Origin: Schmidtea polychroa
Taxonomy: Eukaryota
Length of the DNA: 64,000 nt
Direction: 5' to 3'
NCBI GenBank assembly: GCA_044892525.1
Contig: CM097885.1
Coordinates: 8,806,001-8,870,000, forward strand
Numbering within the stretch: the first letter of the stretch is position 1; every line of letters begins with the position of its first letter. This document shows positions 12,221 to 46,163 of this stretch, piece by piece. Both the position numbers and the translations under genes were made by a program. The notes beneath the pieces are model-generated. The model had not been told where the DNA came from and made no database searches. It saw only the letters and a program-made list of their open reading frames with translations.

Positions 12221-12540
12221 CTAATAATGATAAATCCTTAAATATTATTTGAATATTTTTCTAAATATTTATTACCAATTGTTAGTAGTTAATCCGTTTT
12301 TATTATATAATAATTATAAAACGGATTAATTATTAACAATTAATAAAATTTGGTATATTATTATAAGATAATGTAGAATAAAAGGTTATTATTATTATTA
12401 TCATTATTATTATTATTATTATTATTAGAGATATATGTAGCTGCATGCTCACTGCAGACTACATTAAATGATGAAAAATATTATTATTAGAGATATATGT
12501 AGCTTCATGCTCACTGCAGACTACATTAAATGATGTAAAA

Positions 12541-13468: not shown

Positions 13469-15913
13469 TTATGAAATTACTTGATCAACATCTGGAACAT
13501 CGACTCCTAAATAATGTCCATATGCGAGACTGGTATTAGGACCCACCCAAAGGCGCTTGTCATCGTTGTTCGACAAGGCTATTTTATTATTTTTAAAAGT
13601 AAAGAGCTGGTGGTTTCTTGTTCCTATTCTCGTTTGTGGCACCGTATATACTACGCTGTTGTTGTAGCAGTCTAAATACGACTGGTGTCCTATCTTAGTA
13701 TTACCAAGCTGAACTCCCTTTGCTTTTAAATGATCTTTATCCCCTAACAAACTATAACACTTAGGTCTTAAGAAAACCCATTCCTTATACCCTAAACCTT
13801 TACTCTCATCCTTAAACTTCCCTATCACAGAATCAAGGTTTCTAGAGTATAAGGGATGTGCTGGGTCATAGTTGCTAGTATCTAAAATATTATCACGAAT
13901 CATTGCCGGCAAAAGAGTGTCAAGCTTACAATGCTTTATCTCTAAGAAAAAGGAGTCAGTGTCACCGGCAACGATATTTATATCACAATTAAATTTAGAC
14001 CTGTACTTGGCCAATTCCACATATTGTAGTTGATACATTCTTAGTTTAGACAAATCTAACACTGTTTGACCAATATAGCTAGGCCTGTCTAAACATATAG
14101 AATCTTTATCCAGATGAGCCACAATCAAGTTCTCATCAATTCTGATTGATTTCTTGAAAGTTGGCTTTGAGGCATATACAATCATCTTTTCAGCTGAATT
14201 GCATAGTCTCAAATTCATCCTTTTCTTTAAGTTCTCAACGGATTTCCCATATAAGCTGTTGTTATAAAGCTTAAACAAATCTCTATATAACTCACTGGTG
14301 GATTGTGCTCTTAATGTTGTGTTTTTATCAATGTACGATTTAAAAATGGGTGCTTGCGTGAATTTAACTGCTCTATAAATTTTAACCACCGTCACACCGA
14401 GTGAAAGATAAAGTTTAAGAAGTCTCCAATGAAGAACATAGTTCTTCTTTGGCCAATGCGTGAGCATCAGCTTCTCGACTTTGGAGTTCGGTGGACACAT
14501 CTTTTCCGCAGCAATAGGAAAGTCATTAAGGAAGTCATGCAAGCATTCTGGTATATCGATATCAACTTCCATAGTATACCCATATGGAAGGTTATCAATA
14601 TCCGAATTCATACATTCATAAAGTACAGAATCCAAATCATCATATACCCATACAAAGTCAGCATAAGGCAGATTTTGGCTTAAGGCCCAACCATACAAAT
14701 TATTAATATCTATGTACAAGAGTTCAGTGTCTTCAGAACTTACAACATAATGTTTGTTAACAAATGTTAACCCACCCCGTATCCCTCATTCATAGAAATT
14801 AAACATTTCCATGTCCTGCAAAAGTTCAATGGGTTCCGTTAATGTCATAAGCGCAGAGGCCCATGACATACCGGGAATGCCATAGAAATTAAGAGGCTCA
14901 AGACCATTATATGCAATGGCCTTTGCACGGAATTGTTGAAAATAATCTGCGAGGAGAAACACGTCTAATTTAAGGTAAGTTAACATGTAATCTAACATGT
15001 TGTTGCAATTTTGCTGAGTCCAAATAACTTGGGCTAATGCATACTCATCATTAGACACAGAATCCCAGATCGGAGGTAGTTCAAGAGTCGATTCCAGAAC
15101 CTCATGCGATGTAGCACAGTCATAAGGAAAGATACCTTTGGCTCGAACAATTGCACCATCAAAAACAGAAGAAGTTAAAGGCAGATCGGAAAGAGTCTTA
15201 ACCGCTTTTGCTAAAGATGAATTAACAAACTGCATGCTGTCAATAAAACGAACAGGCAATTTGTTAATATACGCAATGAGGGAGATGGATTTTTCAGTAG
15301 TAGTCGGAATAATATTTAATTCCCAAGAAGGAAAATTATTCAAACCATACTTCAAAATATGATGGAGATCATATCCCCTCAAATTGTGAAAAACAACAGG
15401 TAACTGTCTCTGAATTCGTCGCGAAACATTACATTTCCTACAAGCAGCACCAAGATACTTGCCTGAGAAGTGACAATGATCCCTAACTCTATCTCTAATG
15501 AATTTTTTACACAGATAACAGGTTCTGGAATCTCTATATGCCCGCTGTTGAACGAAACACAAAGTTTGAATAGGTTTTCGCCCATTAATTGCGTAATATG
15601 GCAGGACAATTGTGACAGCAATTTCCTCCACTTACGCAAGAAAGACAACACACAATCATCACCAACAAACTCATAATAAAATCTAGTTTTATTATAATTA
15701 TTAATTAATAACATGCCTGCTGTTATTGGCAAGTGCTTTTGATGGTGTATTATATCCTCAGGTAAAATTGCCTCAAAATCGGCATATATCACGAATGGCG
15801 GGGTGATTGTCTTCGCATAATTTTGAAAAATTAAATTTTTCTCCTTAGGTAGTGTGTATAATGTAGTACCTATCTGGTTTTTTATGCATAAGGCGACATG
15901 AATATCAGTAGTG
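13469..15913 (-). pseudogene. Family B pPolB, copy B2, 3' part (exonuclease, endonuclease VII-like Zn module, polymerase)
   Basis: YADFEA, CYLC...RDHCHFSGKYLGAACRKCN, FHNLRGYD, FIDS, KGIFPY, YIDINNLYG, KLYNNSLYGK, AGDTDS. One frameshift near 15600 and TGA at 14786. Interrupted by element A. Confidence 0.95.
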
Positions 15914-15919
15914 AATATC

Positions 15920-16284
15920 AGTAGTGTGTTTATATCCCTAACCAAAACAGCTGTACCAACAAAACATGCCTCCATTTCACTTAAACCATTAGAAAAACAA
16001 CCTAAAACTTATACTTTTATAGTATTTTAACCCTATATTTTGAAAACAACCACCCTTAATGGCCCTAACTGTTTTAATCTTTAAAGCCTCAAACTCAAAA
16101 GCTTCAAACTAAAAACATAAAGAGAATAGAAAAGAAAAAGGTATTATGAAAAAGTTAGAGGGCTATTTTGGTTAGGATATAAACACACTACTTGAGGCAT
16201 TGTTTTGATCGTAATCAAACTCCGGAGTTGATCTTTATCAGATTATTAATTTTAAATTATATAAATTAAAAAAATTTATGAAAA
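15920..16284 (+). repeat. Left TIR of element A (outer self-inverted module 15920-16192 plus inner part)
   Basis: 15920-15992 matches the reverse complement of 29873-29946, and 16203-16284 matches the reverse complement of 29775-29855. Contains palindrome aactccggagtt. Confidence 0.9.
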
Positions 16285-19200
16285 CAGGGTATCCAATAAA
16301 AATTTTTTTTCTAAAAATGAATTGTAATATTTGTAATAAAGTTTTTAAAAATAAAACTGGATTGATTTCTCACTGTAAATCGAAAGCTCACTTATTAAAA
16401 GCCAATAATCTTAATGCCACAAATTCAAAAGTTTGTCCTAAATGTAAAGGAAGATTTCTACATTCTGGATATAATAAAAATTTTGAAAATTGTATCGGGA
16501 AAATTAGAGAAATATTTACATGTTCTCACTGTAACTTTTCAACAAAAGTAAATTTCTATTATTTAGAACATATAAAAGAATGTAAAAATAAAAAACAAAA
16601 TTCTGACGATGAAGAATGTCATTCAGAAGGAGAACCTGATTGTGTTGAAAGAGAAAAATATAACTGGGATGATTTTAATCATGTAGATGAATTTCAATTA
16701 GAAATCAATGGACCTGCAATTCCTGGAGAATATATAAATAAAAATAAAACAAATATTAAAAATTCTTTCACTGAAGCTTTAAAAAATTATAAACCAACAA
16801 GGTATAATGTTATAAAATATAAAATTATAATCAAAGCAAAATATTGGAGAGGAGCAGAAGAAAACACAACTCCTTTAGATGTTGAAATTGGAATACCCTT
16901 TAAATATTTATTTTCAACTAAAGGATTTGATAAAAACATCAAAGAAATAATTCAAGTAGTAGAAGCAAAACAAGAAGAGGTTGAAAATGAATTAGGAGAT
17001 TCAATCTTAGTATTCAACTCTTTCCAAACTTTAGTGATTGATTATTGGAGAGGATTACCACCTAATCCTAAATCTTATATTCCTACACCCTTTACATCTA
17101 AAAATGTTATAAATGTACAGAATAATGATAACAAATGTTTTCAATGGTCAATACTTGCACATTGACATCCTCAAGAATCAAACCCTCAAAGAGTTTCAAA
17201 ATACAAACAATATGAAAATGAATTAATATTTCCCAAAGGATTCAAACATCCAATGAAACTAGAAGACATTCCAAAATTTGAAAGTTTAAATAATCTTAAA
17301 ATTAATATTTATGAACATGTTAAAAGTAGAGAAATTATTCCAATTTACATTTCTGATAGTGGAACCAAGGATAACGAACCCCAGGATAACCCTAGAGAAA
17401 TATATCTTTTAATCTTGGAACAACAAAATAATCAACACTATGTTTTAATAAAAAACTTTCAAGCTTTTACATCACCAGAGAATCCAACTAGTGGAGGAGG
17501 AACATGTAAAAGATGTCTTCATTATTCATCAACTAAAAACTCTATGAATAAACATACTAGATTTTGTGAAAAAGATGATCCAGCTTTAATTAAAATGCCT
17601 AATAATCCCAAGATGTATTTTAAAAACTTTTCAAATTTACTACAAACAGTAGGAGTGCTTTATGGAGACTTTGAATCTATAAATCGTAAACAAGATTTGG
17701 TTAAACAATATTTAAAAATAATAGAAAAAAATAAACTCATGGATTCATGGAACTCCTCAGGAGAGAAGATGAAACCAGAGAGGATGAAAGCCTTTCTAAG
17801 AAAAAGAAATAAACCTAATAGTGTTAAAAAACTAAACAATTACCATCTGCTTATAAATTATTATTTAAAAGTAATTATCCTGAACTCATAGAATCTAGAG
17901 AATATACATTTCAAGGAATTTCAGAAACAGAAGTCTTGAATCACTTTACTAAAAGTATAAATGATTTAGAACATGAAATATATAAAATATTAAAAACAAA
18001 CTATCCTCAAAATATTTCTAATCAACAACAACAAGAATATGAAAATACTTCCAACTGTTGGATGTGTAAACAAGACATTCTTCCTGATGATAAAGTTAGA
18101 GATCATGATCATTTTAAAAGTGAAAATAATTATCGAGGAGCAGCTCATAAACATTGTAATCTTAATTGTCATACTCCTAAATTTGTACTTGTTATATTTC
18201 ATAATCTTTTTGGTTATGACATACATCTATTTATTAAACATTTAGCAGCAAATGCTAAAAACTCTTTCAAAGTAATAGGACTTACAAAGGAAAAATATAA
18301 ATCAGTTGAATATGGAAAATTAAAATTTATAGACTCGTTAAACTTTCTCCAAATGTCTCTAGATGCAGTAGCAAAAACAATGAAACCAGAAGATTTTAAA
18401 ATCACTCGAGAATTCTTGGAAAAAAATAATATTCCTCTAGAAGAATATCCTACATGTTTAGCAAAAGGAATATATCCTTTTGACTATGTTGACTCGTTCG
18501 AAAGATATAATGAAACAAGTCTTCCTAGCCAAGAAGATTTCTTTTCACAACTTCAAAAATATCATATTACAAATCAAGAATATTCTCGAGCAAATAAAAT
18601 GTGGGAATTATTCAAGTGTAAAACTTTAGGAGAATATACAAGTATGTATTTATCCTTGGATGTTTATATTCTAGCAGATTGCTTTGAAGAATTTACAAAG
18701 TCTTTTGTTCTTAAACCTTACAATTATATAACAGCACCCTCTTTAGCTTGGGATACTTTATTATATACCATTTGGACTTCAAATATAGAAGAAGGTGATA
18801 AAATTATAGAGCTTTTAACCGACCTCAATATGTTTAACCAAATTAAAACAAACATTAGAGGAGGAGTCTCTTCAGTAATGGGGAATAGAGAAATAAAAGC
18901 TAGAAATGCAATAACTACTAGCCGAAGACTCTCTAAACACCCTAATGATCCATATATAAAAATTAACAATGAGGAATTAAAAGAATTGTTGGAAACAATG
19001 AAAAATCCTATATTTATACTTTATATAGATGCAACAGCTCTATATTCTGGTATAATGACTCAATATTTACCAATGGGTGATTTCACTGAAATATATCCTC
19101 CAGAGGGACTTCCAGAGGGACTTCCAGAGGATTCACTAAAGACTCTTGTAAAAGAAATACTTTCAACACCTAAAGATTCTCCAATAGGTTATTTTATAGA

Positions 19201-20641
19201 ATGTGACTTATTATATCCAGATGATATAAAATCAGGAACAAGATATTTTCCTTTAGCTCCTATAAGAAGAAGGGTTGATATCAACGAACTTTCTGAATGG
19301 CAAATCTCACAAAATAAACCCCCAACAATGAAACTTCTTTGTGATCAAACAGATCGAAGATTTTATCTTTGTCACTATAGACTCCTCCAATTTTACCTCT
19401 CACGAGGAATGATACTAAAAAAGATTCATAATGTCATAAGATTTAAACAGACTCCATTCATGAAAGCTTTTATCGAGGAGAACATTAGGTGTCGAAACAT
19501 TGCAAAAAGAGAAGGTAACCTTTTTAAAGATATGAATTGTAAACTTTTAAACAATTCAGTCTTTGGGAAAACAATGGAGAATGTTGATAAATATACTCAT
19601 ATTGAACTCCTAACAAATACTACCAAAGATATTAAGCGTTATAATCGTATGCTAGGAAAGCCTACATTTAAAAACGCACAAGTATTTTCTGAAAATCTTA
19701 CTGCAGTAGAACTAAAGAATTTTGAGAAAACATACAATAAACCAATATTTATAGGGTTTACAATTTTAGAACTCTCAAAATTACAAATGTATGAGACATA
19801 TTATAACATCTTTCAACCTATATATGGTCCTAATATATCAATGCATGCAATGGATACAGATTCAATGTTTTTAACAATAAGAACTCATGATTTACAAAGA
19901 GATATAGCTGAAAATCCTATACTTTCAAATTTAATAAATTCATCTGGAGAACTATTTTCATTTAAAGATGAAAAACCTTTTACTCCTATAGAAAATGGAA
20001 TATTTATTCGTGCTAAACAATATTCATACGAAACATTTACAAATCCTAAATTTGAAACTCGAAAAATTATAGTTAAAAACTTGGAGGGATTAGAGGAATC
20101 TTTTACATATAAATATCCTATATTCCCTGAAGAAGAAAAACCTGTAAAGGATAACAGATGTAAAGGAATACAGAAATCAGTTGCAAAGAATCTTTCTCAT
20201 CAAGATTATATAGATACATTAAACCCAGGTCATAAAGATAAAATTGATGAAGTGTATCAGATTAAAAGTGAAAAGCATGATATTCACTTGATAGAATCTC
20301 AAAAAGTATCATTATCAAATTATGATGATAAGAGATTCATACTAAGTGATTTAAAGACAACTCTACCTATTGGAAATAATTTAATCCCTATAATAAAAAA
20401 TCTAGAAAAGTTGAATAAGTTATATGATACAAATATTATCGATCTTGATATTTATAATGTTGAAATCATTTATCCCGAGAGAGAAATCGAGAAGCCTTTA
20501 TATTCTCAAGTTTTTAATCCTATATGTTTAGAACTTAAATATTTTAATACTGATCCTGAATATATAAAAGGTCTAAGTGATAAAGAATTTAAAGATCATA
20601 AATTAATGATTCAACAAGTACAGTCAATCTCAGTCAGTTAA
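16278..20641 (+). pseudogene. Element A protein-primed family B DNA polymerase with N-terminal zinc fingers; one nonsense codon and one frameshift
   Basis: CNIC..H..H finger, INVQNNDNKCFQWSILAH*HP (in-frame TGA 17163-65), YGDFES, RDHDH, FHNLFGYD, KGIYPFDY, YIDATALY, KLLNNSVFGK, MDTDS. Frameshift near 17830. Confidence 0.95.
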
Positions 20642-20972
20642 AGTTATTTTTTCCTTAAAAAAAATGTCAACAATGAAAATAGAAAATTAATTTTTATTAG
20701 TATAATAATCATCATTGGAATTTATTTATCTTTTAAATTTTTAAAAGATGGTATCATAATACTTCTTACTCCCTTTTTTAAAATGGTTTTCATAATCAGA
20801 TTCTTCCGATTCTTCAGATTCTTGTTCTAATCCAGAGACTAGGTTCCCAGGGGTTGGATTCCCAGGGGTTGGATTCCCAGAGGCTAAAAATTGAAGTCTC
20901 TTTCTTTTTATCCTTTAGGTCTTTATCCTTTAGGTCTTTTAAAAAATCAATCATTTTATAAATAAGAATTTT

Positions 20973-21551
20973 TCAATAAGAATTCTTTAACCATTTTTCC
21001 CGTTTAATTATTTTAGAATATTCATTAGTTATAACATTAGCACTTTTTAATTTATTAATATTATTTTTAATATCTTGTATTATTTGATTTGATTTCATTA
21101 TTTCATCATCACTCAAGATTCCATCTTCTAAAGCTTTTAATTGAAATAAAAATAATTTAGAGATTCCTAATTCTATTGACAAACAAACTTCACGATATAA
21201 ACTTTTCTTTTTAGAAGTATAAGATAATGAAACTATTTCAGTTAGGAAACCATCAGCTACAGAAATACTTCCAAGTATTACTGGTGCAATTGTTAAAACT
21301 GGTAAAGTTATAGGTAAAATAACTGTTAATATTGCAGATGCAAATCCTAAAGAATAACCTATAACTTTTAAAACTGTATTCCCTTTATTCCATCTATTTT
21401 TAATTTTTTTATAATGCTTTAATAAATCTTGTAAATGTAAGGTTTCTGATTTAAATTCTTTTACTCTCATAATTTCAAGTTCTGTGGGAGCCGAAGGTTT
21501 GGGGGAAGCTCTCAATTCTGGGTAAATTTTTTCTTCTCTTACTTCTTCCAT
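20973..21551 (-). CDS. Predicted membrane protein with N-terminal YPEL and PSAP motifs
   Basis: 192-aa ORF with a long central hydrophobic segment (VIGYSLGFASAILTVILPITLPVLTIAPVILG) flanked by helical regions. Confidence 0.8.
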   Translation of the reverse strand: MEEVREEKIYPELRASPKPSAPTELEIMRVKEFKSETLHLQDLLKHYKKIKNRWNKGNTVLKVIGYSLGFASAILTVILPITLPVLTIAPVILGSISVADGFLTEIVSLSYTSKKKSLYREVCLSIELGISKLFLFQLKALEDGILSDDEIMKSNQIIQDIKNNINKLKSANVITNEYSKIIKREKWLKNSY

Positions 21552-21559
21552 TTTAATAA

Positions 21560-22540
21560 TTAAAAAAATAAGACTTTATTCTTCTGAGCACCATCTGGTA
21601 CCAATACTCGGATATCAAAAGAAACTCTTGTTGAGAGAATGTCTTTATATAATTCCATCAACGCATTACGAACTCTGTCAACATCAACTTTTTTTTCATA
21701 AAATATTAAATCTATATATTGTACAAGTGTGCTTTTAAAAATAATATTCTTACTTTTAACTTTATGTAATCCATGCGAATGAGTATTAACATGCCAATTT
21801 TCGTGTGGTAAATTATAAGCAGTAATTATAACATCACCCTTTTCAAACTTACTATTATAATCACATTTCACAAACCATTTCATTCTTTCATTATCATCAT
21901 CAAATAAAAAGAAATAAGGATCAATAATCTTTACAACCATAAAAACACTCCATTCTTTACTATTTGTTGTTATTAAAGTTGGTTCTATAAAATGTTTATA
22001 TGTATGGGGTAATAATGTTTTATTCTGTTCTAATTCAGCAGCTGTTTTTCTAATACTATGTGTGGTGTTAATATGTGTTGTATGAGACTCTAAATTTGAA
22101 AGTCTTTTATTAAATGATGTAATCATCTCATTTATTATATTATATATTGTATTAATTTTATTATCCATAAGTTGTTTATGCATAAGTCTTTTATTTTTTA
22201 AAATTGATATTGTATCAGTTAACCTTTGAGTTTCTTCAGCTATCTTTTTAGCTTCTTCATTTAACTGGGTTTGTAATTTATTTATTTTAGATTCTAGTTT
22301 AGATTCTAAAGAATTATTAATATCAAGTTTTAAATCTTTGAGTTTGAGATCTACATATTTTTTATTTACTGCATCAAAATCATCAGTTGGATAAGCTAGT
22401 TCTTTTATCCTATGTCCATTTAAAATTAAATCTCCTTTCATGGAATCACCTTTTTCATTAATATATTTTTTTTCTGTTAAGCTTAAAACATCTTCATCTT
22501 TTAATCCTTCATTATATAAACCAAATTTATTATAATTCAT
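21560..22540 (-). CDS. Fibre/spike-like protein
   Basis: KGDSMKGDLILNGHRIKELAYPTDDFDAVNKKYVD resembles the trimeric fibre/YadA-stalk-type repeat. It is followed by a coiled coil and a beta-rich C-terminal domain. Confidence 0.7.
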   Translation of the reverse strand: MNYNKFGLYNEGLKDEDVLSLTEKKYINEKGDSMKGDLILNGHRIKELAYPTDDFDAVNKKYVDLKLKDLKLDINNSLESKLESKINKLQTQLNEEAKKIAEETQRLTDTISILKNKRLMHKQLMDNKINTIYNIINEMITSFNKRLSNLESHTTHINTTHSIRKTAAELEQNKTLLPHTYKHFIEPTLITTNSKEWSVFMVVKIIDPYFFLFDDDNERMKWFVKCDYNSKFEKGDVIITAYNLPHENWHVNTHSHGLHKVKSKNIIFKSTLVQYIDLIFYEKKVDVDRVRNALMELYKDILSTRVSFDIRVLVPDGAQKNKVLFF

Positions 22541-22631
22541 TTATTTACTAATAAAATCCTGATAGTTTAGCCTGACTAGGTTATCAATCCTCGATAGTTT
22601 AGCCTGGCTAGGTTATCAGACCTTGAAAATC

Positions 22632-23369
22632 CTATACCTGTCTTAAAGATAAACACATTGAAATCTTTTCTCCATTAAAACTAATCAATTCTCCGTTTTC
22701 ATCAACAATTTTAAAACTTATACTCATTATGTTTTTTCTACATATTGGTAAATAATTTGGAGGATTCATTCTTTGAACCATTTTATATCCAACTCTTACA
22801 ATGTTTGAAGGAAAAGAATATAAAATATTTGCATGTTTACCATTATTATATGAACCTGTTATACAATCACATTCAATATTTATAGAATTTGTATTTGTAA
22901 TCTGTATAATATTTTTAGATTTAAAGGTTCCAGAGGTTGTTCCAGGTGTATACTCTTTAGCTTCAAAACCTAAAATAGTATGAAAGAAACTAGAAGTATT
23001 AAAAGAAAGTCCAACATTTTTTAAAGTTAATATACATTTAGAGGTTTGAAAATCTGCTTTTATTTCTACATTTCCATTTGTTTCTTTTGAAATTACTTTT
23101 GCTAAATCTAAGATTTCATATGATCCAGGTTCAATTCGTATAATATTATTATTACTCTCAAGTATAAATTTATTATTATTAGAGTTTATATTAAAAATAG
23201 TATTAAAACATGAAAACCACAAGAGTCCTAATTCATAATTTAAATCTTTATCTAAATTTATTGAGTCTTCAAAATTTATAGTAAAATCTGATTCATTTGA
23301 ATTTATTAATAAACTTCTTGAATATTTATTAGACATTATGTTTACCATTTTTTTTAAATCATCTTCCAT
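22632..23369 (-). CDS. Minor capsid protein (penton)
   Basis: SDFTINFEDSINL..YELGL; IEPGSYEI; INIECDCITGSYNNG...ILYSF; ISFKIVDENGELISFNGE. Confidence 0.85.
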   Translation of the reverse strand: MEDDLKKMVNIMSNKYSRSLLINSNESDFTINFEDSINLDKDLNYELGLLWFSCFNTIFNINSNNNKFILESNNNIIRIEPGSYEILDLAKVISKETNGNVEIKADFQTSKCILTLKNVGLSFNTSSFFHTILGFEAKEYTPGTTSGTFKSKNIIQITNTNSINIECDCITGSYNNGKHANILYSFPSNIVRVGYKMVQRMNPPNYLPICRKNIMSISFKIVDENGELISFNGEKISMCLSLRQV

Positions 23370-23377
23370 TTATTATA

Positions 23378-23881
23378 TCAAACTTTCAGACTTTCAGAGA
23401 TTAAAGGTTCTAAACTATTATAAATTTCTTGGATTATAGATTTAAAATCTTGATCTCTATTTAGTTTATAAAGGACATATAAACTTAAAATACCACATAT
23501 TTTAGTATTATTAGGTTGAACTTGTATATTATTAAAAGTATAATCTTTGGAACAACCTTTGGAGGAACCTTTGGAAGTCCCTACGGAAGTGTCCCTAGAC
23601 TCAAGATAGTCTTGTACTTCTTTAGTAGGTTTAATACCAAAAGAATCAAAGTATATAGACTTGTGGAATGAATCTTGAAATATACAAACCCAATGAGATC
23701 CTTTTTCATTTGAATTTTGATAGTTTATAATAATATTATTCTTTTTAGTTTTTCCAATCTTGTATAATTCATCATTCATTAATATTTTAATTTTTAAATT
23801 TAAATAATCTGCATAATCTTTCAAATCAAAATTTGTTTTTTCATTTATTTCAAAAGTTTTTAAAAAATCTAGTATAGACAT
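23378..23881 (-). CDS. Adenain-like cysteine maturation protease
   Basis: GSHWVC, YFDSFG, QVQ...ICG (His/Asp/Gln/Cys catalytic set). Confidence 0.92.
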   Translation of the reverse strand: MSILDFLKTFEINEKTNFDLKDYADYLNLKIKILMNDELYKIGKTKKNNIIINYQNSNEKGSHWVCIFQDSFHKSIYFDSFGIKPTKEVQDYLESRDTSVGTSKGSSKGCSKDYTFNNIQVQPNNTKICGILSLYVLYKLNRDQDFKSIIQEIYNSLEPLISESLKV

Positions 23882-23934
23882 TTCTATATTTAAAACTTTG
23901 TATCTTTAGACTTTGTATCTTGAAACTTTATATC

Positions 23935-24768
23935 TTAAAACTTTGTATACTTTAAAAATTTATCTTTTGTAATCATTCCTTGATTTAATAATTCTTTTGA
24001 AATCTTTAAAATATCAGAATTTAAATTATTATGTCCTGCTTTTTTAGCTCCTAATAATTTTCTTAATTCAATAAAAAGATTGATAGGATTATTGAACCCC
24101 TTACCTTTGAACTTTGTACCTTTGAACTCCGTACCTTTGAACTCCGTACCCTCTGTAACAATATAACCCCTTTCATTTTTATTCTTTAACTCTTGAATAT
24201 ATTTTGAATTTGAACTAGCTCCTATTAATTTCATTAAACTTAAATATTTTTTAATTTCATCTGAGGAATCATCCTCTAGGGGATATCCACAAATTAATCT
24301 TAAAAAAACATCTGAAAATTCAAGGTTTAAATGTTTATTATTATAAACATTTTGTGAACGAATGTGTGAATTATTTTCTGGATCTAAATATAAAGTAAAG
24401 TTTTGTTTATTAATTGTTATTATTTGATATCCATGATCATTAATAATAAATGAGGGTTTAATTGAAGGACTCAAACCTTGATTAATTTTAGGATCAACGA
24501 TAAGAGGTTTCATCATCTCAAGGGGCTCTAATTAAAAAGGTTGTTCCAGGGGTTTTAATCCTGAAGGTTTTAATTCTAAAGGTTTTAATCCCAAAGGTTG
24601 TTCCAAAGGTTTTAAAGTCTCTATGGCTTTAATGGTTGGTTGTTGTTGTTGCATCATCACTTCATTTAATATCAGAGATTCATTCTGTAGGTTTAAATTT
24701 TTTTTATTATAGTTGTTTTGTTCAGATTGTAATTTTTTTAAAAGAGCCAACCTTTCTTCATATACCAT
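23935..24768 (-). pseudogene. Polinton uncharacterised protein; two in-frame ORFs split by one TAA at 24532
   Basis: ORFs 24532-24768 and 23935-24516 share a frame and read LKPLEQPF*LEPLEMMKPL across the stop. C-terminal LLGAKKAGHNN resembles a motif common in Polinton core ORFs. Confidence 0.65.
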
Positions 24769-24790
24769 TTTTATACCATTTTTATACCAT

Positions 24791-25321
24791 TTATACCTCC
24801 CAGGGTTTCAGGTATAATCCTATACCATTTTTAGTTTTACACATGCACCCATTTTTTAGGGATTTACATATTTTTTTAAAATCCTCTTTATCCTTTGGAG
24901 ATAAAGAATTAGATGATGAAATTTGATTCTTTAAAAAATCATTTAAACCTCTACCTTTATAAGGATCAAGATAAAGACCTTTTCCAACGGACCCTTTCCC
25001 CTTCTTCTTCATTGAATCGATTTCAGTTTGTAGTTTTTCTTTTTCTAGGTCTGTCTTTTGAGATTCTTTAGCTTTTTGAACTGTAGTTGCAATTCCTCCA
25101 GCTATTCCAGCAGCACCTGATAAACCAGCAATGATTGCAGGTATTAAAGCAGCTAATGGAAGAAAACCACCCTCTTTAGCTTGCTCCTTCTGTCGCTCTT
25201 TAACTTGTTCCTTTACATGTTTTCCAATAAAATATTTTTTACCATCAATTACTACTGATTTACTTTTATTTGAATTTATTAATTCTTGCAAAGATTCCTC
25301 CGAAGGTTCCCATGTTGTCAT
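24791..25321 (-). CDS. Adenovirus pX(mu)-like virion core/membrane-active precursor
   Basis: GGFLPLAALIPAIIAG resembles the adenovirus pX C-terminal GGFLPALIPIIAAAIG motif. Repeated GxG-L motifs. Confidence 0.75.
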   Translation of the reverse strand: MTTWEPSEESLQELINSNKSKSVVIDGKKYFIGKHVKEQVKERQKEQAKEGGFLPLAALIPAIIAGLSGAAGIAGGIATTVQKAKESQKTDLEKEKLQTEIDSMKKKGKGSVGKGLYLDPYKGRGLNDFLKNQISSSNSLSPKDKEDFKKICKSLKNGCMCKTKNGIGLYLKPWEV

Positions 25322-25337
25322 TTTTTAAATAATAAAA

Positions 25338-26128
25338 ATGGATACTTGGAAACCAATTTTAACTCGACACAAGAGTAAATTTAATAATAAGGTATTTCCT
25401 GATAATTTTAGATTATTAATTGTTGGATCTTCTGGATGTGGCAAGAATGTACTTCTTTTGAGGATGTTACTTGAAGATGCTTTTCTAGATTATAATAATT
25501 TAATATTTTATTCTACAACCATTAATCAACCGGAATTACAACTTTTGAAATGTGGATTTGAAAATAAATTAACTAAAAAAGGAATGATTGACATTTTTAA
25601 ACATCAAGAGGAGTGTCCTAAAGAAGTTTTTCAACCTTGTGATATGGTAGACTGGTACAAGGAAAAGATCATGGAATCGGATATTAATAATAAAAATGAT
25701 TATATCTGCGAGAGCCAAGGTGAGACAATTCAAGTTTATTCTCTAATAAACCTGAAGATGTAATACATTGTGATTTACTTCCTAGAAATAAAAAGAATTT
25801 AGTTATATTTGATGATGTTGTCAACATGAAAAACCAAGAGATTCAAAAGAGTTACTTTACACGAGGACGGCATAATAATTGTAATGTTATTTATATATCT
25901 CAAACTTATTATGCTTTGGATAAAAACTCTATAAGAAATAATTCCAATTGTTTTATATTTTTTAAATTAGATCGACGGGACAAGAATATGATTTATAATG
26001 CTTTATTTTCAAATGTTGAACCTGATAAGAATATGTTTGATATGTTTGTAGATAATCATTGGAAAGAAAAATATAATTATATTTATTTGGATAGAGAAGA
26101 AGCTGAAATATGGAAAAGTTTGTTTTAG
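25338..26128 (+). pseudogene. A32/FtsK-like genome packaging ATPase, frameshifted near 25730
   Basis: Walker A IVGSSGCGKN; Walker B LVIFDD at about 25800 in the second frame; FTRGRHNN, ISQTYY, IRNN. Confidence 0.92.
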
Positions 26129-27537
26129 AAATCTGTTTTCTGTAGTTCATTATTATAAAATCTACCTAATATTTTTTCATTATTTAAATCAAAGATGCTA
26201 TATGTTATTGGAGTTGTATATTGTATTTTATTTATAATAAAAATTTCATTTGTCCATTTTTTTGTGAATCCTTTTTCAAATTTATTTTTATATGTAAATA
26301 TTCTTACTCGGTCACCAATTTTAAACTTTGGTTTTTCAATAACATCATTTTCAATATTTACCACTTTAATGGTTTCAGGCTTCAAGGAAGCATTTAAAGG
26401 TGTTGATTTTATAGAACTATGAACATCATTATTATATTCATTTACAATCTTTTGTAACAATTCATTGTTCCATTTTTGTTTTCCAATAGCAGTAAAATAT
26501 TTCCACATTTTATTTTTTAATGTTCTATTTAATCTTTCAACTACGACTGGTTTTCCTTCGTTTTCTGTTGAATATAATTTAATATCATTTTCATTTAAAA
26601 ACTTTGTAAAAACTTTGTTATAAAATTCTGTTCCTTTATCACACCATAAATATTTTGGAATTCTTTGATATTCTTCAAATATATTTTCAAATGCTTCTGT
26701 AATGGAATATCCTGTTTTATTTTCTAAACATCTTGCAAAAGCAAATCTTGTATATAAATCTCTTACTGTTAAAATTATTTTATATTTTTCAGGGTCTGAT
26801 GATTTGCGCATAAAGACTAAATCAGCAGACCATGTTTGATCTTTTTCATGTACTTGAACTTTTAAATATTTTTTATTTTTTCTAAATTCATGGTGTAATT
26901 CCTTTGCATATTTTATTTCTGATTCTGTTGGGGTTTGTAAACTAGTCTTGGCTGTACTCTCGAGGGATCTTTCAATCTCTGCTTGTTCGATAATCTTTTT
27001 ATAAGCAACATCTTTTGCTTTCCTAGGAAGTCTTGCACCCATGGTGATCGGACTGTGTCCTAAGCCTATGAAAATCTTACCTTTCATTGCTAATTTAACT
27101 AGAGCTCTTTGAATCTTTTCTTGGGTTGATGGATTTTGGATACTATTTAAATCATGTATTAAATTCACATCTGCAACATGTCTATCTCTAAGATTTGTTG
27201 AATTGTATGCAATGTCATGTTTTAAAGCTGCTTGATCAATTCTATTTATTGGTTCTTCTCCTTGTTTGGGATTATTATTTTCATCTAATCTAATATCTAG
27301 ACGTGTTCCTGGTCCAGTATAGTTGTGTTTAAATAAATGTCTTTCACCTGGATATTTTTCTGTAGTAAAAGGTTTTAATATTGAAGATGTTGTTTTTGAA
27401 GATTGCAAATCGCCTCCAGCTCGTGGAATTAGGTCACCTACTGTATGTTTTTTAGTTTTAAGATGACTTGCTTTATGATGTCTTGTAACTTGACAATTAC
27501 AAGTTTCACATCTCCAATAGGGTTTATTTAAAGACAT
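26125..27537 (-). CDS. Zinc finger + parvovirus-type phospholipase A2 + RVE integrase fusion
   Basis: CETC...HLKTKKH; NYTGPGT...RIDQAALKHDIAY...RHVAD; DDE triad WSADL, WCDKGTEF, VVERLNRTLK; PKFKIGDRVRI. Single uninterrupted 470-aa ORF. Confidence 0.93.
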   Translation of the reverse strand: MSLNKPYWRCETCNCQVTRHHKASHLKTKKHTVGDLIPRAGGDLQSSKTTSSILKPFTTEKYPGERHLFKHNYTGPGTRLDIRLDENNNPKQGEEPINRIDQAALKHDIAYNSTNLRDRHVADVNLIHDLNSIQNPSTQEKIQRALVKLAMKGKIFIGLGHSPITMGARLPRKAKDVAYKKIIEQAEIERSLESTAKTSLQTPTESEIKYAKELHHEFRKNKKYLKVQVHEKDQTWSADLVFMRKSSDPEKYKIILTVRDLYTRFAFARCLENKTGYSITEAFENIFEEYQRIPKYLWCDKGTEFYNKVFTKFLNENDIKLYSTENEGKPVVVERLNRTLKNKMWKYFTAIGKQKWNNELLQKIVNEYNNDVHSSIKSTPLNASLKPETIKVVNIENDVIEKPKFKIGDRVRIFTYKNKFEKGFTKKWTNEIFIINKIQYTTPITYSIFDLNNEKILGRFYNNELQKTDF

Positions 27538-27554
27538 TTTAAAATGTTAAAATA

Positions 27555-28847
27555 TTAAGAATCTCCCCTAACATTTTCAATAATTGAAATCTTTCCACCA
27601 TATAATTTCATTTCTATTTTCTTTTCTTCTAATATTAATGTATATACTTTAGCTTTAAAATTAGAATCCTTTGTTACATGAAGTGTAACATCAACATTAT
27701 TTATGGCTAATCGATCATCTTGGTCTGATACATTTATACAAAATATAGAATATAAATTTTTGAAATCTTCTAGACTTAATTGTGGTTCAACTTTAAAATC
27801 ATGACATGTTTCAATATAATTTAGATATGGGAATATGTTTTCATTTTTTTCAATATTAAATTCCATTTTATTTATAGGATAATAGGAATTATTTAATTGA
27901 ATTTGAATTGTTTTTAAATTATCATCTTGAATCTTTTGAATAAATAGATTGTTATTTTTTTGGAAAGATGAATCTGTTTCTTTGAATCCAATCAAGATAT
28001 ATCTTGGTCGGTATGCTAAATTTGCTACCTTTATAGAATATGTTGAACCCTCTGTCATACTAAATTCACTACAGATTCTATTTAAATAATTTACATTTAT
28101 AGACTTGTTGGAATTTAATCTTTCAAGGAGTTTAATCTCAGAATGTGGGTTTAATGTCCATTCAGGTATATGTAATTCAAGTGTTGATAATTTTAATTTA
28201 GCTTTTGTATCTACAGCTCCATAGAACAATCTTTTATCACCTTCTACTCTATTACAGATGAATTCTATAAAAACATTATGAAGTATACGATTATAGTTTT
28301 GAAGGAATCCAAACAAGTGTTTTAATTCAAAATAACCTTCAAATTTTTTAGATTTATAAAGTTCAGCTCTTTTATGGTAACCATGGTTTACATCTAAACC
28401 ATCTTTATCTAAATCCCCTTTATTAACATCAGGAATCCAACCTGTTAATTCACCATATTCGTTTTTATAATCACAACCAGTCAAAATAAAATTTAACATT
28501 GTAGAATATACTCCCGGATGCAAAACAGTTTCAATTTCTGATGATCCTAGTTTTAATCTCATGTTGGAGAATAAATTTGGAAAGAAATTATTTTCTAGGG
28601 TTATATCTTTGTTTGCTTCAATTTCTAATTCTACTTTGTAATATAATTTGGCATTACAAATATCTATTGGGTTTGATGTTTGAAGAGATTGAAAAACTAT
28701 ATCACCCCTACGATTTAAGTTTGCAATAGATCCTGAAGTTGGCGAGATTTTTAAAATATCATTTTTTTTAATTTCATGAGTAAATTCTTTATTATAATCA
28801 AGATTTAATTTATTTTTTTCTTGAATTTTAAGATTTATATTATTCAT
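27555..28847 (-). CDS. Major capsid protein (double jelly roll)
   Basis: About 430 aa from the AAAATG start at 28847; NNFFPNLFSNMRLKLGSSEIE, LKHLFGFLQNYNRIL, RPRYILIGF, YSIFCINVS. Confidence 0.88.
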   Translation of the reverse strand: MNNINLKIQEKNKLNLDYNKEFTHEIKKNDILKISPTSGSIANLNRRGDIVFQSLQTSNPIDICNAKLYYKVELEIEANKDITLENNFFPNLFSNMRLKLGSSEIETVLHPGVYSTMLNFILTGCDYKNEYGELTGWIPDVNKGDLDKDGLDVNHGYHKRAELYKSKKFEGYFELKHLFGFLQNYNRILHNVFIEFICNRVEGDKRLFYGAVDTKAKLKLSTLELHIPEWTLNPHSEIKLLERLNSNKSINVNYLNRICSEFSMTEGSTYSIKVANLAYRPRYILIGFKETDSSFQKNNNLFIQKIQDDNLKTIQIQLNNSYYPINKMEFNIEKNENIFPYLNYIETCHDFKVEPQLSLEDFKNLYSIFCINVSDQDDRLAINNVDVTLHVTKDSNFKAKVYTLILEEKKIEMKLYGGKISIIENVRGDS

Positions 28848-28933
28848 TTTTATATATAAAAGTTGATAAAAATAAAAGTTGAAAAATAAAAATAAAAATA
28901 AAAGGGAATTCAATAAAAAAATAATTTATAAAA

Positions 28934-29155
28934 ATGATTGACTTTATTGAAAGAATGAGAAATGAATTGAATGAAGTTAAACTTAAGAGAATAAAAAGAA
29001 GAGAAGAAGAACCATTAGAATACATTAAAGAGTTGGTGGTAGAGAATGAAAAGTATCGACATTTTTACATGAATGCAGTAGAAGTAGCTGAGAAAAGATT
29101 AGATAAAATAAAACAATTACAGGAAAGAATAAAAGAACTTGAATCGATTATTTAA
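28934..29155 (+). CDS. Small charged coiled-coil protein
   Basis: 73-aa E/K/R-rich ORF with an AAAATG start, divergent from the capsid gene. Confidence 0.55.
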   Translation: MIDFIERMRNELNEVKLKRIKRREEEPLEYIKELVVENEKYRHFYMNAVEVAEKRLDKIKQLQERIKELESII

Positions 29156-29174
29156 AAAAATGACAAAAAATCCA

Positions 29175-29258
29175 GACCTTGATGGCGCAGTGGGCTAGAC
29201 TCACACAGTGGTTCAAAATGCTAGCGGTTCAAATCACATCTGAGGTTAGTTTTTTTTT
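29175..29258 (+). ncRNA. tRNA-like RNA polymerase III unit 1
   Basis: A box TGGCGCAGTGG, B box GGTTCAAATC, end pairing GACCTTG/TGAGGTT, T9 terminator at 29250-29258. Anticodon stem does not form properly. Confidence 0.7.
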
Positions 29259-29421
29259 CAACATAAAATAATATTAAAAATTTGAAAATAATATTGAAAA
29301 TAGTGTGGGTATCTTATATTTATAAAGTACTTGTATATTTTATTTTATTTATTTTATTTTATTTTATTTTTTTATTAATTAATTATTTTTAAAACATAAA
29401 TATGAAAAAAAAAATATTGAA

Positions 29422-29501
29422 ACGGGTGATGGTGGCGAACCGGTAATTATCCCCACCAGTCTTTCGAACACACCCGGATCGATCCCTTTCTCAGTTGTTT
29501 T
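29422..29501 (+). ncRNA. Candidate Pol III unit 2
   Basis: A-box-like TGGCGAACCGG (29433-43), B-box-like GGATCGATCCC (29476-86), TTTT at 29498. Stems GGGTG/CACCC and TGGTGG/CCACCA. Confidence 0.45.
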
Positions 29502-29710
29502 CGGACCTCTTTCGGATTCGCTTTCGAATTCATTTGTACTTTCGAGCAGCACACTTAAAACGCCGATGAAATCGTATTCGAGCGAGAAGCGAATAATAAG
29601 GTGTGCTGCTATTATCGAATTGATTCTGATTATGAGCCTGGCCAGCTTGTATATTGGAAGAGATTTGATAAACGAAAGAGGTTGAATAAAAAAAAATGAT
29701 CCGGATCAAA

Positions 29711-29769
29711 AAAACTGTTGAGAGGACAGTGAAAAAAAAAAAATACCACTGTCCTCTCAGAGCAGTTTT
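29711..29769. other. Stem-loop adjacent to the right TIR
   Basis: Perfect 13-bp stem tgagaggacagtg/cactgtcctctca, extended by aaaactg/cagtttt, with an A-rich loop. Confidence 0.8.
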
Positions 29770-29774
29770 ACTAT

Positions 29775-29946
29775 TTTTCATTTATTTTTTAATTTATATA
29801 ATTTAAAATCAATATTCTGATAAAGATCAACTCCGGAGTTTGATTGCGATCAAAAGTAGTGTGTATATAGCCCTAATGGTTTAAGCGTAATGGAGGTATG
29901 TTTTTGTTAGGAGGGCTGTTTGGGTTGGGTATATAACCACACTACC
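29775..29946 (-). repeat. Right TIR of element A (internally shortened relative to the left)
   Basis: gatcaactccggagtttgattgcgatcaaa followed by agtagtgtg...cacactacc. Confidence 0.9.
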
Positions 29947-31342
29947 TATACCAAATGCATTTTTATGTCTAAAACCATTGAGACAATGGGGACACCAGTT
30001 CACTCTAATCCAAAGGTTGCAGGAGCTACTGGGATGTGAGTTCATTAATTTTTGTAAGTTAAAAACTGCGGTATAATGGAAATTATCACCGTCTTCCAAT
30101 AATAATAAATATATGGGTTCACCACCTATAACCTTAGATCGGTGAATAATATCTAAATGAGGATGATGGGGAATATAGTTACTATCATCGTTTTCTATAG
30201 GCTTAGCTGGGGTCTTTTTATAAATTAAAACATTTATTGATAAATTTAAATCCTTGTTTTTCCTTTCAAATTTAGGGATATCACATAATTTCATGGGGAA
30301 ATCATCTATTGGGTCAAAATTTAACTCGTCAAGATAATTTTCATAGGAACTAGCACGATTTCTATGATGACGTATAACATTACGTTTTAACAGTGCTAAA
30401 ATACTATAGATAAAGCACATATCGTCGGTGTTTTGACGTTTACTATTGCTTTTTTAAAATTTAAAGCTGATGGGGTGGGTATATAACTATGTCCAGCTAG
30501 CCTATTCATATGGGTAAATTTTGTTAATATAAAATCTATCTCTTTGATTTTAACCACTCGCCATCCGCTACCCAAATATGTGAATTTTTCTATTTTCTCA
30601 TTTAACTTAGTGATACCCTTTACTAGAAAATTATCTGAAAAAACTTCGGCGTTATTGGAGAAAAAATTATCTCGGATTTCGCCATCTTTCTCAAATTGGA
30701 TTAAAACGGTGAATTGTATTTTAACTGTGCCCATACCGTTTATTTCGGTAATTAATTTATTTGTCATCTTATTTGTAATGAAAACTTGTACCAAGTTATC
30801 TTTTTCCATATTAAATCGTAAATTCTTTCTAGCCCCCTTAAAATCTATCTCAATTTCAGGTTCATCGTCAATATCGATCGAACCACCTATTTGATTATAT
30901 ATTGAATCACCAGTTGTATTAATTTTAACAATTTTAGAGGGAACACCAGACCCAAAACTAACAGCAGGCTGTTTATTATTATTTAGAATATTATTTATTT
31001 TAGTATTTAGATCCGTATTTAGATTAGTATTATTTACATTATTATTTACATGTTTTGTATTATAATTATAATTTATAGGTTTTGTATTTAGGTGTTTTGT
31101 AGTATTATGTGTTGACTGTTGTATTTTGATAAACAATTTCTTTTTATTTAAAGAAAACAGATTTAAATGTGATTTGTGAATATTATAAAACTCTATATAT
31201 TTAATGCTGTGGGAAGTCTCGCATATTGGACATATAAAGTAGTTTATGCCATAGAATCTATGACCGTAGTATTTTTTCATATTTTTATGGCATATATTTG
31301 TATGATCATTTGATGACATGCAGTAGCGGGGGTATAATTTAC
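29947..31342 (-). pseudogene. Family B pPolB, copy B2, 5' part
   Basis: GSGW, SYIPTP...KKAIVNV, CFIYSILA, FPMKLCDIPKFERKN, HYTAV, WCPHCLNGF. Frameshift near 30425. Continues on the other side of element A. Confidence 0.92.
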
Positions 31343-31578
31343 CTGATAAATTATAAATATATATCAAATATATTAATAGATTTAAAAATTAATAGTTAAT
31401 TGCATTTATATTTAATGTCTTTATTAACAATTCTTAAGCAGTTTTTATCGCATAATAATTATAAAACGGAATAATAATCGGAATACATATATAATTTATT
31501 GTAATATTTTTATTATCAAAGGTATAAAATATGGGAGATATGAAATCATAAATATTATTATCATTGTTATTATTATTG

Positions 31579-35370: not shown

Positions 35371-35760
35371 TTAAACATCAAATTTTTTGTACAATAACCA
35401 ACCTAAACAATGTTGACCACATGTTTGAGTCAAAGGATTTTGAAACATAGTTTTATTATACACAATAGGTTTTCCCATTGTTTGTAGTTTTGATATCAAC
35501 AAAGCCGGGTAATAAAAACCCATAGGATCGAACACGAATATATTACCAGGTTTCATATATATAGCTATCCAATGTTCTCCACTAAGATGAGACGATTGAG
35601 TATTGACGATTATTGCTTGATTATTACTCAAATATGGAATTTTATCAAGAGGAAAAACTCCAACAAATTCATTTCCCAATATCTGTTTTCCGATTTTATT
35701 GACCTGAACAGAACTACTTAAATAAATCCAGAGTATAAAAAACAACTTACTCCATGACAA
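35371..35760 (-). CDS. Family B adenain-like protease, variant a
   Basis: GVFPLD, IVNT, GEHWIA, FDPMG, FQNPLTQTCGQHC. The 5' end is possibly spliced. Confidence 0.88.
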   Translation of the reverse strand: MSWSKLFFILWIYLSSSVQVNKIGKQILGNEFVGVFPLDKIPYLSNNQAIIVNTQSSHLSGEHWIAIYMKPGNIFVFDPMGFYYPALLISKLQTMGKPIVYNKTMFQNPLTQTCGQHCLGWLLYKKFDV

Positions 35761-35783
35761 CTTTTTGGTGTTTCTGTATACAT

Positions 35784-36103
35784 TTATACCAACACTGTTC
35801 TATTTGCAGTAATTTGAACTTCATTTTCAAATACTCCATATATTATAACATCTACTGGTTCAGTAATAGCTTTTGCAAACTTTATATCCAGTCGTAAATT
35901 TCCATTTTGTGATAGTTGACTCTGATTTAAATCAAACTCGGGGGCTAAAACAAATGTGAAAAATGGGTATTTGATTTTACATTCTTCAAGAGTTATTCCA
36001 CAATTCAAGTTTTTATCTAAATAAATCAGATTTCTAACAATACTTTGCATATATGTAGCACAGTAATTATCACTTTCGAAATCTTGAGTATATGTTTCTC
36101 TAT
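35784..36103 (-). pseudogene. Family B major capsid C-terminal fragment (repeated at 39244 and 42704)
   Basis: FTFVLAPEFD...QNGNLRLDIKFAKAITEPVDVIIYGVFENEVQITANRTV, a typical Polinton MCP C-terminus. Confidence 0.85.
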
Positions 36104-46136: not shown

Positions 46137-46163
46137 GACAAATTTCTATATTTCTGTTTACAT

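Follow-up and report, generated by a model that had tools for sequence, protein, structure and literature searches.

How does one Polinton come to lie inside the polymerase gene of another, and was the site struck by chance or chosen? The question arises in Schmidtea polychroa, where, within the 64,000-bp stretch of DNA that we analysed (the window), a Polinton/Maverick element, A, splits the DNA polymerase gene (pPolB) of a second lineage, B (Table 1).

The left boundary of A is marked by AGTAGTGTG, which begins at 15920, and the right boundary by CACACTAC(C), which finishes at 29946. Its terminal inverted repeats (TIRs) carry the (AGT)2 (AGTAGT-type) end motif, with a deviating terminal base on the right, and match at 83.6% over the outer 73 bp and 92.7% over the inner 82 bp. 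Together with these TIRs and a 6-bp target-site duplication (TSD), the pPolB, rve integrase, ATPase, protease and major capsid protein identify A as a Polinton/Maverick. The initial annotation had called the element complete. All of the genes are indeed present, but the copy is mutated: pPolB has a stop at ~17165 and a frame change at ~17830, and the ATPase gene and one ORF have the breaks listed in Table 1. With its pPolB and ATPase frames broken, A is not an intact, potentially active copy.

Table 1. Features of element A, the polymerase gene B and neighbouring relics (window coordinates)
Feature	Position	Strand	Evidence or remark
Element A, mutated Polinton/Maverick of 14,027 bp with full gene set	15920..29946	.	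end motifs, TIR match, Pfam
A pPolB, three reading-frame pieces, N-terminal C2H2 finger	16215..20641	+	PF03175 E 7e-13
A conserved hypothetical protein, hydrophobic middle	20973..21575	-	match in locus L028; unnamed clusters, score 0.93
A coiled-coil-like ORF	21560..22540	-	sub-threshold domain matches only
A probable minor capsid (penton) protein	22632..23369	-	tblastn matches in 6/116 loci; unnamed viral clusters 0.98
A adenain-like cysteine protease	23378..23905	-	PF00770 E 5e-4, just under cut-off; matches in 18/116 loci
A ORF, two in-frame pieces, probable premature stop ~24533 between	23935..24807	-	ORFs
A protein with adenovirus pX-like stretch	24791..25324	-	PF05829 E 2e-4, under cut-off
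A packaging ATPase (A32-like), frame change ~25740 splits gene	25329..26128	+	PF04665 on both pieces
A integrase (open frame) with Zn finger, PLA2-like domain and rve core	26125..27546	-	PF00665 + PF08398
A major capsid protein (double jelly roll)	27555..28925	-	PF21738 E 1e-25
Left TIR, inner segment	16203..16284	+	92.7% to 29855-29775
Right TIR, inner segment	29775..29855	-	TIR match
Left fold-back cassette, 273 bp, outer end motif + inverted inner copy	15920..16192	+	motif scan
Right fold-back cassette, 92 bp	29855..29946	+	motif scan
TSD left copy, AATATC	15914..15919	.	size set by homologues' Zn-motif spacing
TSD right copy, TATACC, 4/6 match	29947..29952	.	hexamer comparison
13-bp tandem duplication across left junction	15899..15924	+	sequence
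12-bp exact match to A end motif within B coding sequence	15849..15860	+	distance to A's first base 71 bp
Upstream half of B pPolB, frame change ~30430	29947..31388	-	homologues, tree
Downstream half of B pPolB, frame change ~15630 and stop ~14786	13469..15906	-	homologues, tree
B2, second B-family pPolB relic, internal deletion covering junction site	9823..12260	-	83% nt over 1.5 kb; B's sister in tree
C, sister-lineage relics	35371..48200	-	3 x 3,460-bp unit: pol fragment, MCP C-terminus, protease

Scores fell below the Pfam curated cut-offs for PF00770, PF05829 and PF04665 on one ATPase piece, and the weak PF03175 scores may hint at a divergent adintovirus class of PolB. An ORF that has neither a Pfam match nor a named family (22632..23369) is presumably the minor capsid (penton) protein, given its position and motifs, and the coiled-coil-like ORF next to it we take, by resemblance, to be perhaps fibre-like. 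The rve core of the integrase (PF00665, E 6e-11) contains a DDE triad, D239/D300/E334, that is invariant across 26 aligned sequences; neither this protein nor any of the 80 relatives listed as closest gave a chromodomain match. The idea that its PLA2-like domain represents a novel fusion was rejected, because PF08398 and PF00665 occur together in 108 of 120 listed relatives. None of the 116 comparison loci, which were retrieved using the integrase of A and B-type polymerases as queries, is close (<=52% identity throughout). Motif scans for the end of A gave 0 matches in viral_contigs and 0 in metagenome_contigs, and no relative of its capsid protein was found in viral_contigs.

In content A resembles the animal 'adintovirus' type of Polinton/Maverick, for which the portions consulted of two papers give a pPolB, rve integrase, ATPase, adenain-like protease and double jelly roll capsid, a length of ~14 kb, the (AGT)2 motif, a 6-bp TSD and decay of most genomic copies (PMC8097293, PMC8502044). 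Mavericks as a rule have a 6-bp TSD and (AGT)2 ends (PMC8097293), and PLA2-like and pX-like domains have been described in the 'adintovirus' group (PMC8097293, PMC8502044). However, A has PLA2 fused to the integrase and pX as a separate gene, versus the single PLA2X gene of PMC8502044; in PMC3671162, the PLA2 domain appears solely in a figure legend. Unlike the 'adintovirus' Polintons as these excerpts describe them (PMC8097293, PMC8502044), A shows no chromodomain match and has an inverted second end motif in each TIR.

On either side of A lies B, the broken polymerase of a dead element. Its upstream half closes with ...CPHCLNGFRHKNAFGI and its downstream half opens with DIHVALC; these are the two parts of a Zn motif that A interrupts, as the initial annotation had recognised. 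B is typed by PF03175 (E 5e-10 on one piece), with <=66% identity to full-length relatives, and its polymerase and that of A, at 28% aa identity, belong to different lineages. When aligned to the intact homologue P0001, the upstream half of B ends at residue 420 and the downstream half takes over at 421. Both halves keep the linear order of intact homologues, with an overlap of 6-bp size between them, which supports the proposed nested insertion into another lineage's pPolB. The accompanying claim that excising 15920-29946 restores the frame does not hold literally: read outward from A, the left flank gives D-I-H-Y-stop, with the stop supplied by the 13-bp duplication, and B has further breaks (Table 1).

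Two unrelated pPolB fragments might instead have been placed around A by rearrangement or mis-assembly. The region is heavily rearranged, as seen in the deleted B2 and the triplicated C unit, and among the 15/568 joints, 24/5,822 loose ends and 32/~141,000 pieces listed (from 4 of 24 runs and as contigs only), neither junction is bridged by any read or contig and no empty-site joint occurs. Against this, the B halves are continuous to the residue, with a two-codon overlap, and they share both relatives and tree position. They rank 82 full-length homologues alike (Spearman 0.84-0.92, compared to 0.59 and -0.58 for controls with A's polymerase), although the homologue panel was gathered with the downstream half, which favours such agreement. 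In separate trees of 28 of the 120 homologues, after rows with <60% query coverage were dropped, both halves fall beside P0001-P0004, P0006 and P0011; branch support is moderate (upstream half 91/87), and the downstream half was placed by a quick tree only. With closest relatives common to both, the halves give no indication of different subfamilies, the result that had been named as evidence against an insertion. In addition, B2 matches the upstream and the downstream piece of B within one stretch. We find a rearrangement or mis-assembly scarcely credible as the source of this arrangement.

The hexamers that flank A, AATATC and TATACC, agree at 4 of 6 positions, as had been reported for a decayed TSD. 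By themselves they are weak evidence (P(>=4/6)=0.053), and thus the match is not significant unless the spacing in homologues is added. Other registers gave 1/5 (5 bp), 1/7 (7 bp) and 2/8 (8 bp); a 4-bp register reaches 3/4 by sequence alone but clashes with the codon spacing. The Zn motif, C-x2-C-x12-H-x3-C, is spaced by 12 residues in 73 of 120 homologues (of the remaining 47, 5 were scored as 15 only because an earlier Cys was taken as the pattern start, 12 were spaced otherwise and 30 yielded no motif). This spacing means that two codons are doubled at the B junction, which supports a TSD of 6 bp. The reported 13-bp tandem duplication spanning the left junction is also present and, since it contains both flank and element end, would have arisen at or after integration.

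The surroundings of this insertion are rich in Polinton remains. The capsid, protease and integrase fragments found at 35.4-48.2 kb accompany the pPolB of relic C, which is 51-65% identical to B in aa sequence; the integrase, at 46.6-47.8 kb, is broken, and the integrase and capsid pieces of C are located 4-16 kb from B. Contrasts in capsid, integrase and gene order that had been drawn between A and B are in fact contrasts between A and C. For B itself, no capsid, integrase or ATPase was found in the window by tblastn with the proteins of A and C, and no ends were found by motif scan. Polinton relics make up 38% of the 49,973 bases outside A, and pPolB-derived sequence 26%, generous figures in that B itself and the C triplication are counted. 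Both families are present in very many copies: in run X1, 110,923 contig pieces fall on the 18-kb stretch, on A and B alike, and each site has dozens of contig variants. B has 3 breaks in ~3.9 kb and A 3-4 in ~11.6 kb, counts that are consistent with B being older but too few to tell if B was dead before the insertion.

We consider it likely that A represents an ordinary pile-up of Polintons in a crowded region, in which a chance integration into B pPolB was followed by decay of both elements. One copy of the abundant A family would have been inserted, by its own rve integrase, into a pPolB of the B lineage in opposite orientation, the target presumably being a chromosomal copy of B rather than an episome. 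Staggered strand transfer and gap repair is the established TSD mechanism for the Polinton class, and would have doubled 6 bp at the target of A. The site was most likely struck by chance; in a Polinton-crowded region, insertions would be costless to the host and would persist. Later the TSD copies would have drifted to 4/6, a 13-bp slip would have doubled the left junction, the right end cassette would have lost an internal piece, and the A and B polymerases would have acquired their breaks. This order of events, and the absence of targeting, we infer.

The sequence next to the junction nevertheless offers an argument for targeting. The 12-bp match to the end motif of A within B coding sequence is the only such match in the 49,960 bases outside A, and the site is the only other GTAGTGTG in the window. 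The last bases of the right end of A, together with two bases of flank, match it in inverted form over 11 bp. A match 71 bp from the junction has a chance of ~0.3% by position and of 0.08-0.2% under codon-usage randomisation of that stretch. The integrase of A might then bind end-like sequence in B-family pPolB (Y-T-L-P codons), insert the element close by and so preferentially knock out B polymerases. Element-in-element preference has a precedent in Ngaro retrotransposons, which reside in endogenous EMALE virophages, in one case within pPolB (PMC8547959); there, however, the excerpt reports a counted preference (91% of type 1) and a tyrosine recombinase, whereas A provides one event, spotted post hoc, and an rve integrase. 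Moreover, other end-like matches exist (11 bp at 30477 and 13/16 at 56416), Mavirus-like rve integrases are described in the same excerpt as lacking sequence specificity (PMC8547959), and the local Polinton background is high. Given this background, the multi-copy families and the lack of a chromodomain match, targeting is unsupported beyond the one post-hoc hint, and we think it unlikely. Our literature search found no report of transposase tethering to end-like sites, and in the literature searched the target choice of Polinton integrases is essentially unmeasured.

A feature overlooked in the initial annotation is an inverted second end motif within both ends of A. In the left cassette, the first 16 bases of the inner copy match the outer end motif at 16/16, and the predicted DNA fold (-31.3 kcal/mol, z -4.3) was equalled in stability by 0 of 200 shuffles. 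The right cassette folds weakly (z -1.6; 15 of 200 shuffles equally stable) and, as judged from the alignment, looks like the left one after an internal deletion. The ability of each end to fold back is the single unusual trait of A. The cassette was seen in 0 of 116 related loci, but this gives no background rate, because only 7 of them showed an end-like motif close to the end of a contig. That the fold-back is functional in its own right seems to us doubtful.

Inverted AGTAGT-type motifs bound each cassette, and the two might therefore be separate MITE-like mini-elements (273 and 92 bp) around a core, such that A is a composite or the cassettes arrived independently. In run X13, depth, which is not copy number, was ~60x higher in the left-end bin than in the next bin (3,046 vs 48). 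However, a contig from that run spans 15972-16222, running from mid-cassette across the inner motif and on into the inner TIR with 8 other letters. Furthermore, the cassettes alone lack a flanking duplication (AATATC/TGAGGC and GATCAAA/TATACC), whereas the whole of A has the 6-bp overlap, and the cassette is placed identically at both ends. We give the mini-element origin a very slim chance.

Polinton nesting as such has already been published (PMC12289875; bioRxiv 10.64898/2026.07.28.741278). Like A in B, Mavericks of the protist Trichomonas vaginalis are nested, in a passage that gives neither junction-level analysis nor a targeting test (PMC12289875). In Halocafeteria seosinensis, 5 PLVs and 9 virophages lie inside other viral elements, and palindromes in TIRs beside the TSD led to a model of hairpin-primed replication that is unproven in the preprint (bioRxiv 10.64898/2026.07.28.741278). 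A terminal palindrome of this type, adjoining the TSD, is present in A, clearly on the left and weakly on the right. Those of Halocafeteria are short, 52 nt for the example given, and occur mainly with non-pPolB replication genes (bioRxiv 10.64898/2026.07.28.741278), whereas A, a Polinton encoding pPolB, folds back over 273 nt with a long loop, and the end motif recurs in the inner arm. Set phrases for nested Polintons or Mavericks were not found in the literature searched, where supplements may hold further cases: by term search, 'nested' is absent from PMC11131425, PMC10120064, PMC10748475 and PMC8502044, and neither 'Polinton' nor 'Maverick' occurs in PMC11410931, while the part consulted of PMC12220804 has nested retrotransposons only.

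A bolder combination, in which A prefers an end-like motif in a rival polymerase, thereby disabling that lineage, and in which its fold-back ends, where the integrase/origin motif recurs inverted, self-prime or spawn mini-elements, appears less likely still than targeting by itself. If true, a bias towards the polymerase of a rival family would amount to a novel kind of conflict between viruses within a genome. Through fold-back ends of a pPolB-encoding element, the notion of hairpin priming would reach beyond the protist elements, mostly without pPolB, for which it was put forward; the displaced single strand would prime itself even though A encodes a protein-primed polymerase, and such ends could account for gene-less palindromic derivatives. 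As it stands, A in B is a clean, well-resolved case of Polinton-in-Polinton nesting in an apparent animal genome. The nesting provides a relative age, with A younger than the B copy at 13469..31388, and a caution for annotation pipelines, for which nested Polintons yield chimeric or doubled gene sets.

The window is AT-rich, repeat-dense eukaryotic DNA. Element A had been called a complete Polinton in the initial annotation, and its gene content is indeed full: pPolB lies on the plus strand in the left part, followed on the minus strand by two hypothetical ORFs, a probable penton, an adenain-like protease, a split ORF and a pX-like protein, with an A32-type ATPase (plus), a PLA2-rve integrase (minus) and a double-jelly-roll capsid (minus) in the right part. 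The copy is not intact, however, since pPolB carries one stop and one frame change, the ATPase one frame change, and a further ORF a probable stop. A fits the Polinton definition in each tested feature but intactness, the penton ORF being only a probable assignment. At both breaks in pPolB, the window copy differs from most or many of the other contigs in the sequencing runs, which suggests that these breaks are private to it. The integrase has an open frame, retains D239/D300/E334 and is 93.6% identical to the database protein P0244; the PLA2-rve fusion was present in 108 of 120 among the relatives listed, and differs from the PLA2X gene described in the available text of PMC8502044. The first bases of A are AGTAGTGTG and the complementary motif closes the element with its last base altered. 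The two copies of its terminal inverted repeat (TIR) share 83.6% of positions in the outer 73 bp and 92.7% in an inner stretch of 82 bp.

Positions of element A, the pPolB gene B, relics of B and C, and other features
Feature	Position	Strand	Remark
Inverted repeat	83-1355 / 5544-6816		1,273 bp at 99%
Inverted repeat	2513-2940 / 55322-55749		428 bp at 93%
Dispersed repeat, ~100 bp	2793-2864; 12800-12906; 36230-36348 (x3); 63754-63856		
Satellite arrays	6970-8681; 57230-57700		30/31-bp AT-rich units
Relic B2	9823-12260		second B-family pPolB
Coding minisatellite	11596-12042		12-bp unit
Imperfect palindrome	12252-12362		kin sequence at ~31400-31480
B pPolB	31388 to A right end, then A left end to 13469	-	
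Element A	15920-29946	both	Polinton gene set
A end motif	15920 (+); 16192 (-); 29855 (+); 29946 (-)		
Kindred AT-rich stretches	32080-32700; 34290-34900 (-)		
GC-richer island	33690-33880		short palindrome, 13-bp tandem repeats
Triplicated unit	35252-46496		3,460 bp, 98% identity
Lineage-C integrase, broken	46500-48200	-	34% identical to A's
TRAF/MATH-domain gene piece	49131-50246	-	PF21355, E 1e-21
LTR-retrotransposon RNase H fragment	51080-51577	+	PF17917

The two halves of B were compared separately with 120 natural homologues. On homologue P0001 the alignment of the upstream half stops at residue 420, and that of the downstream half begins at 421. Over 82 full-length homologues, a panel collected with the downstream half and therefore biased toward agreement, the scores of the halves correlated at 0.84-0.92 (controls from pieces of the A polymerase, 0.59 and -0.58). 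Separate trees with 28 of the 120 homologues clustered the upstream half with homologues P0001-4, P0006 and P0011 (support 91/87); in a quick tree the downstream half grouped with relic B2 (95) and the sister-lineage relic C (97), beside the same homologues. The A polymerase, 28% identical to that of B, formed a long branch in both. Because the halves share relatives and tree place, and B2 matches both upstream and downstream parts of B, these comparisons make a rearrangement or assembly chimera unlikely; among the matches listed, contigs of four runs, no record spans the A/B junctions. The observation is largely right: with halves that are residue-continuous and have the same relatives in scores and trees, the nesting of A in another Polinton's pPolB is real.

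Removal of A had been said to rejoin the gene in frame. The halves are colinear, but the gene is not open, as the flank adjoining A's left end reads D-I-H-Y-stop because of the reported 13-bp tandem duplication, which we found at 15899-15924. This duplication dates from integration or later, since both flank and element end lie inside it. Elsewhere B carries two frame changes and one stop. As for the proposed decayed 6-bp target-site duplication (TSD), the flanking hexamers alone match at 4/6 positions (chance P=0.053), with two mismatches compatible with 7-16% TIR divergence (P 0.07-0.26); its size is backed by the Zn motif. The spacing from second Cys to His is 12 residues in 73/120 homologues and 11, 13, 14 or 16 in 12/120; the printed rows show that five more were scored 15 solely since the pattern began at an earlier Cys, and no motif was recovered in 30/120. 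At the break in B there is room for two residues, yet two are present on either side, so six bases occur twice. Independent support for a 6-bp TSD comes from this spacing; the available text of PMC8097293 gives Mavericks that same size, as well as an (AGT)2 end motif.

B was recovered as a polymerase only, and no integrase, ATPase, capsid or end motif was found beside it. The pieces of capsid, protease and integrase found at 35.4-48.2 kb belong with another polymerase, C, which compares with B at 51-65% (amino acids) and 67% (nucleotides). The C capsid piece had no significant match to the A capsid. The described contrast between A and B in capsid, integrase and gene order is in fact one between A and the sister relic C, and reaches B only by extrapolation. 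The tail of the broken C integrase presumably resembles the chromodomain type, and motifs nearby are taken to mark a penton gene start. The triplicated unit, which carries a lineage-C pPolB fragment, the MCP C-terminus and a protease in near-perfect copies, reflects local amplification or assembly expansion. The dispersed repeat comes after the B and C polymerase gene ends, and in other places too. Directly upstream of the B2 polymerase start lies the imperfect palindrome, a possible promoter or origin element, with its kin upstream of B; the minisatellite is expanded in the N-terminal part of the B2 polymerase. The island upstream of B may be what is left of the terminal region of a B-family element. 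The AT-rich stretches between B and C contain short acidic pieces that look like coding sequence, as well as possible splice donors, and could be accessory genes that are spliced.

Outside A the window has 49,973 bases, of which Polinton relics make up 38% and pPolB-derived sequence 26%; these are upper figures, as B and the triplication are counted in. That the two families exist in many copies is clear from contigs of four runs, each from a different study: 110,923, 21,784, 1,348 and 37,403 contig pieces matched 13420-31400, 30/30 bins were covered, and A and B alike showed dozens of contig variants at each site, although contig depth is not copy number. We therefore consider it probable that A entered B by chance. 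Integration biased or targeted toward the B site, to which we give little credence, is favored by a 12-bp exact match to one of the four 20-mers taken from A's ends, the sole one of that length in the 49,960 bases beyond the element. This match, at 15849, lies inside the Y-T-L-P codons of B, 71 bp from the junction (~0.3% by position), and under random synonymous codons a match arose in 0.08% (12-mer) to 0.2% (8-mer) of draws. However, it was spotted post hoc and is a single event, another match of 11 bp lies at 30477, and neither the A integrase nor its 80 closest among the relatives listed had a chromodomain match. The available text of PMC8547959 describes a measured bias of Ngaro retrotransposons toward virophages as targets, but no sequence specificity of the virophages' own rve integrase. 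For A in B there is one event. Targeting by A is unlikely on present evidence.

Each TIR of A opens with a self-foldable cassette, since the end motif is present four times, inverted in pairs. The left cassette (273 nt) folds at -31.3 kcal/mol (z -4.3; 0/200 shuffles equally stable), and the right one (92 nt), which by its sequence looks like the left minus its middle, at z -1.6 (15/200). No target duplication specific to either cassette was found at the left or right one. A contig from run X13, which bears a different species label, follows the window colinearly over 15972-16222 at a depth of 1,340, crossing the inner motif and reaching the inner TIR. Judged from this one contig among the matches listed, the cassette probably characterizes family A; run X5 has variants with internal deletions of the cassette. 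If a single strand is displaced, its 3' end could anneal to the inner motif, with either of two outcomes: a duplex origin rebuilt locally, or self-primed synthesis. The integrase could also use the inner motif as a second end and so free mini-elements. An equally plausible origin of the cassette is a snap-back accident during replication that TIR copying then fixed. Palindromes within TIRs, adjoining the TSD, are described in the available text of the Halocafeteria preprint (bioRxiv 10.64898/2026.07.28.741278), which proposes hairpin priming chiefly for elements lacking pPolB, whereas A encodes it. Both large inverted repeats of the window are of fold-back type, made of short tandem units.

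Main texts of the open literature yielded no report of Polinton-in-Polinton nesting in animals. Nesting of this type is already known, from Trichomonas vaginalis Mavericks (PMC12289875) and from the Halocafeteria elements of the preprint cited above; the example added here involves two abundant families, each represented by a decayed copy. Two leads deserve counting across the genome, namely the fold-back ends and the end-like motif close to the insertion site.
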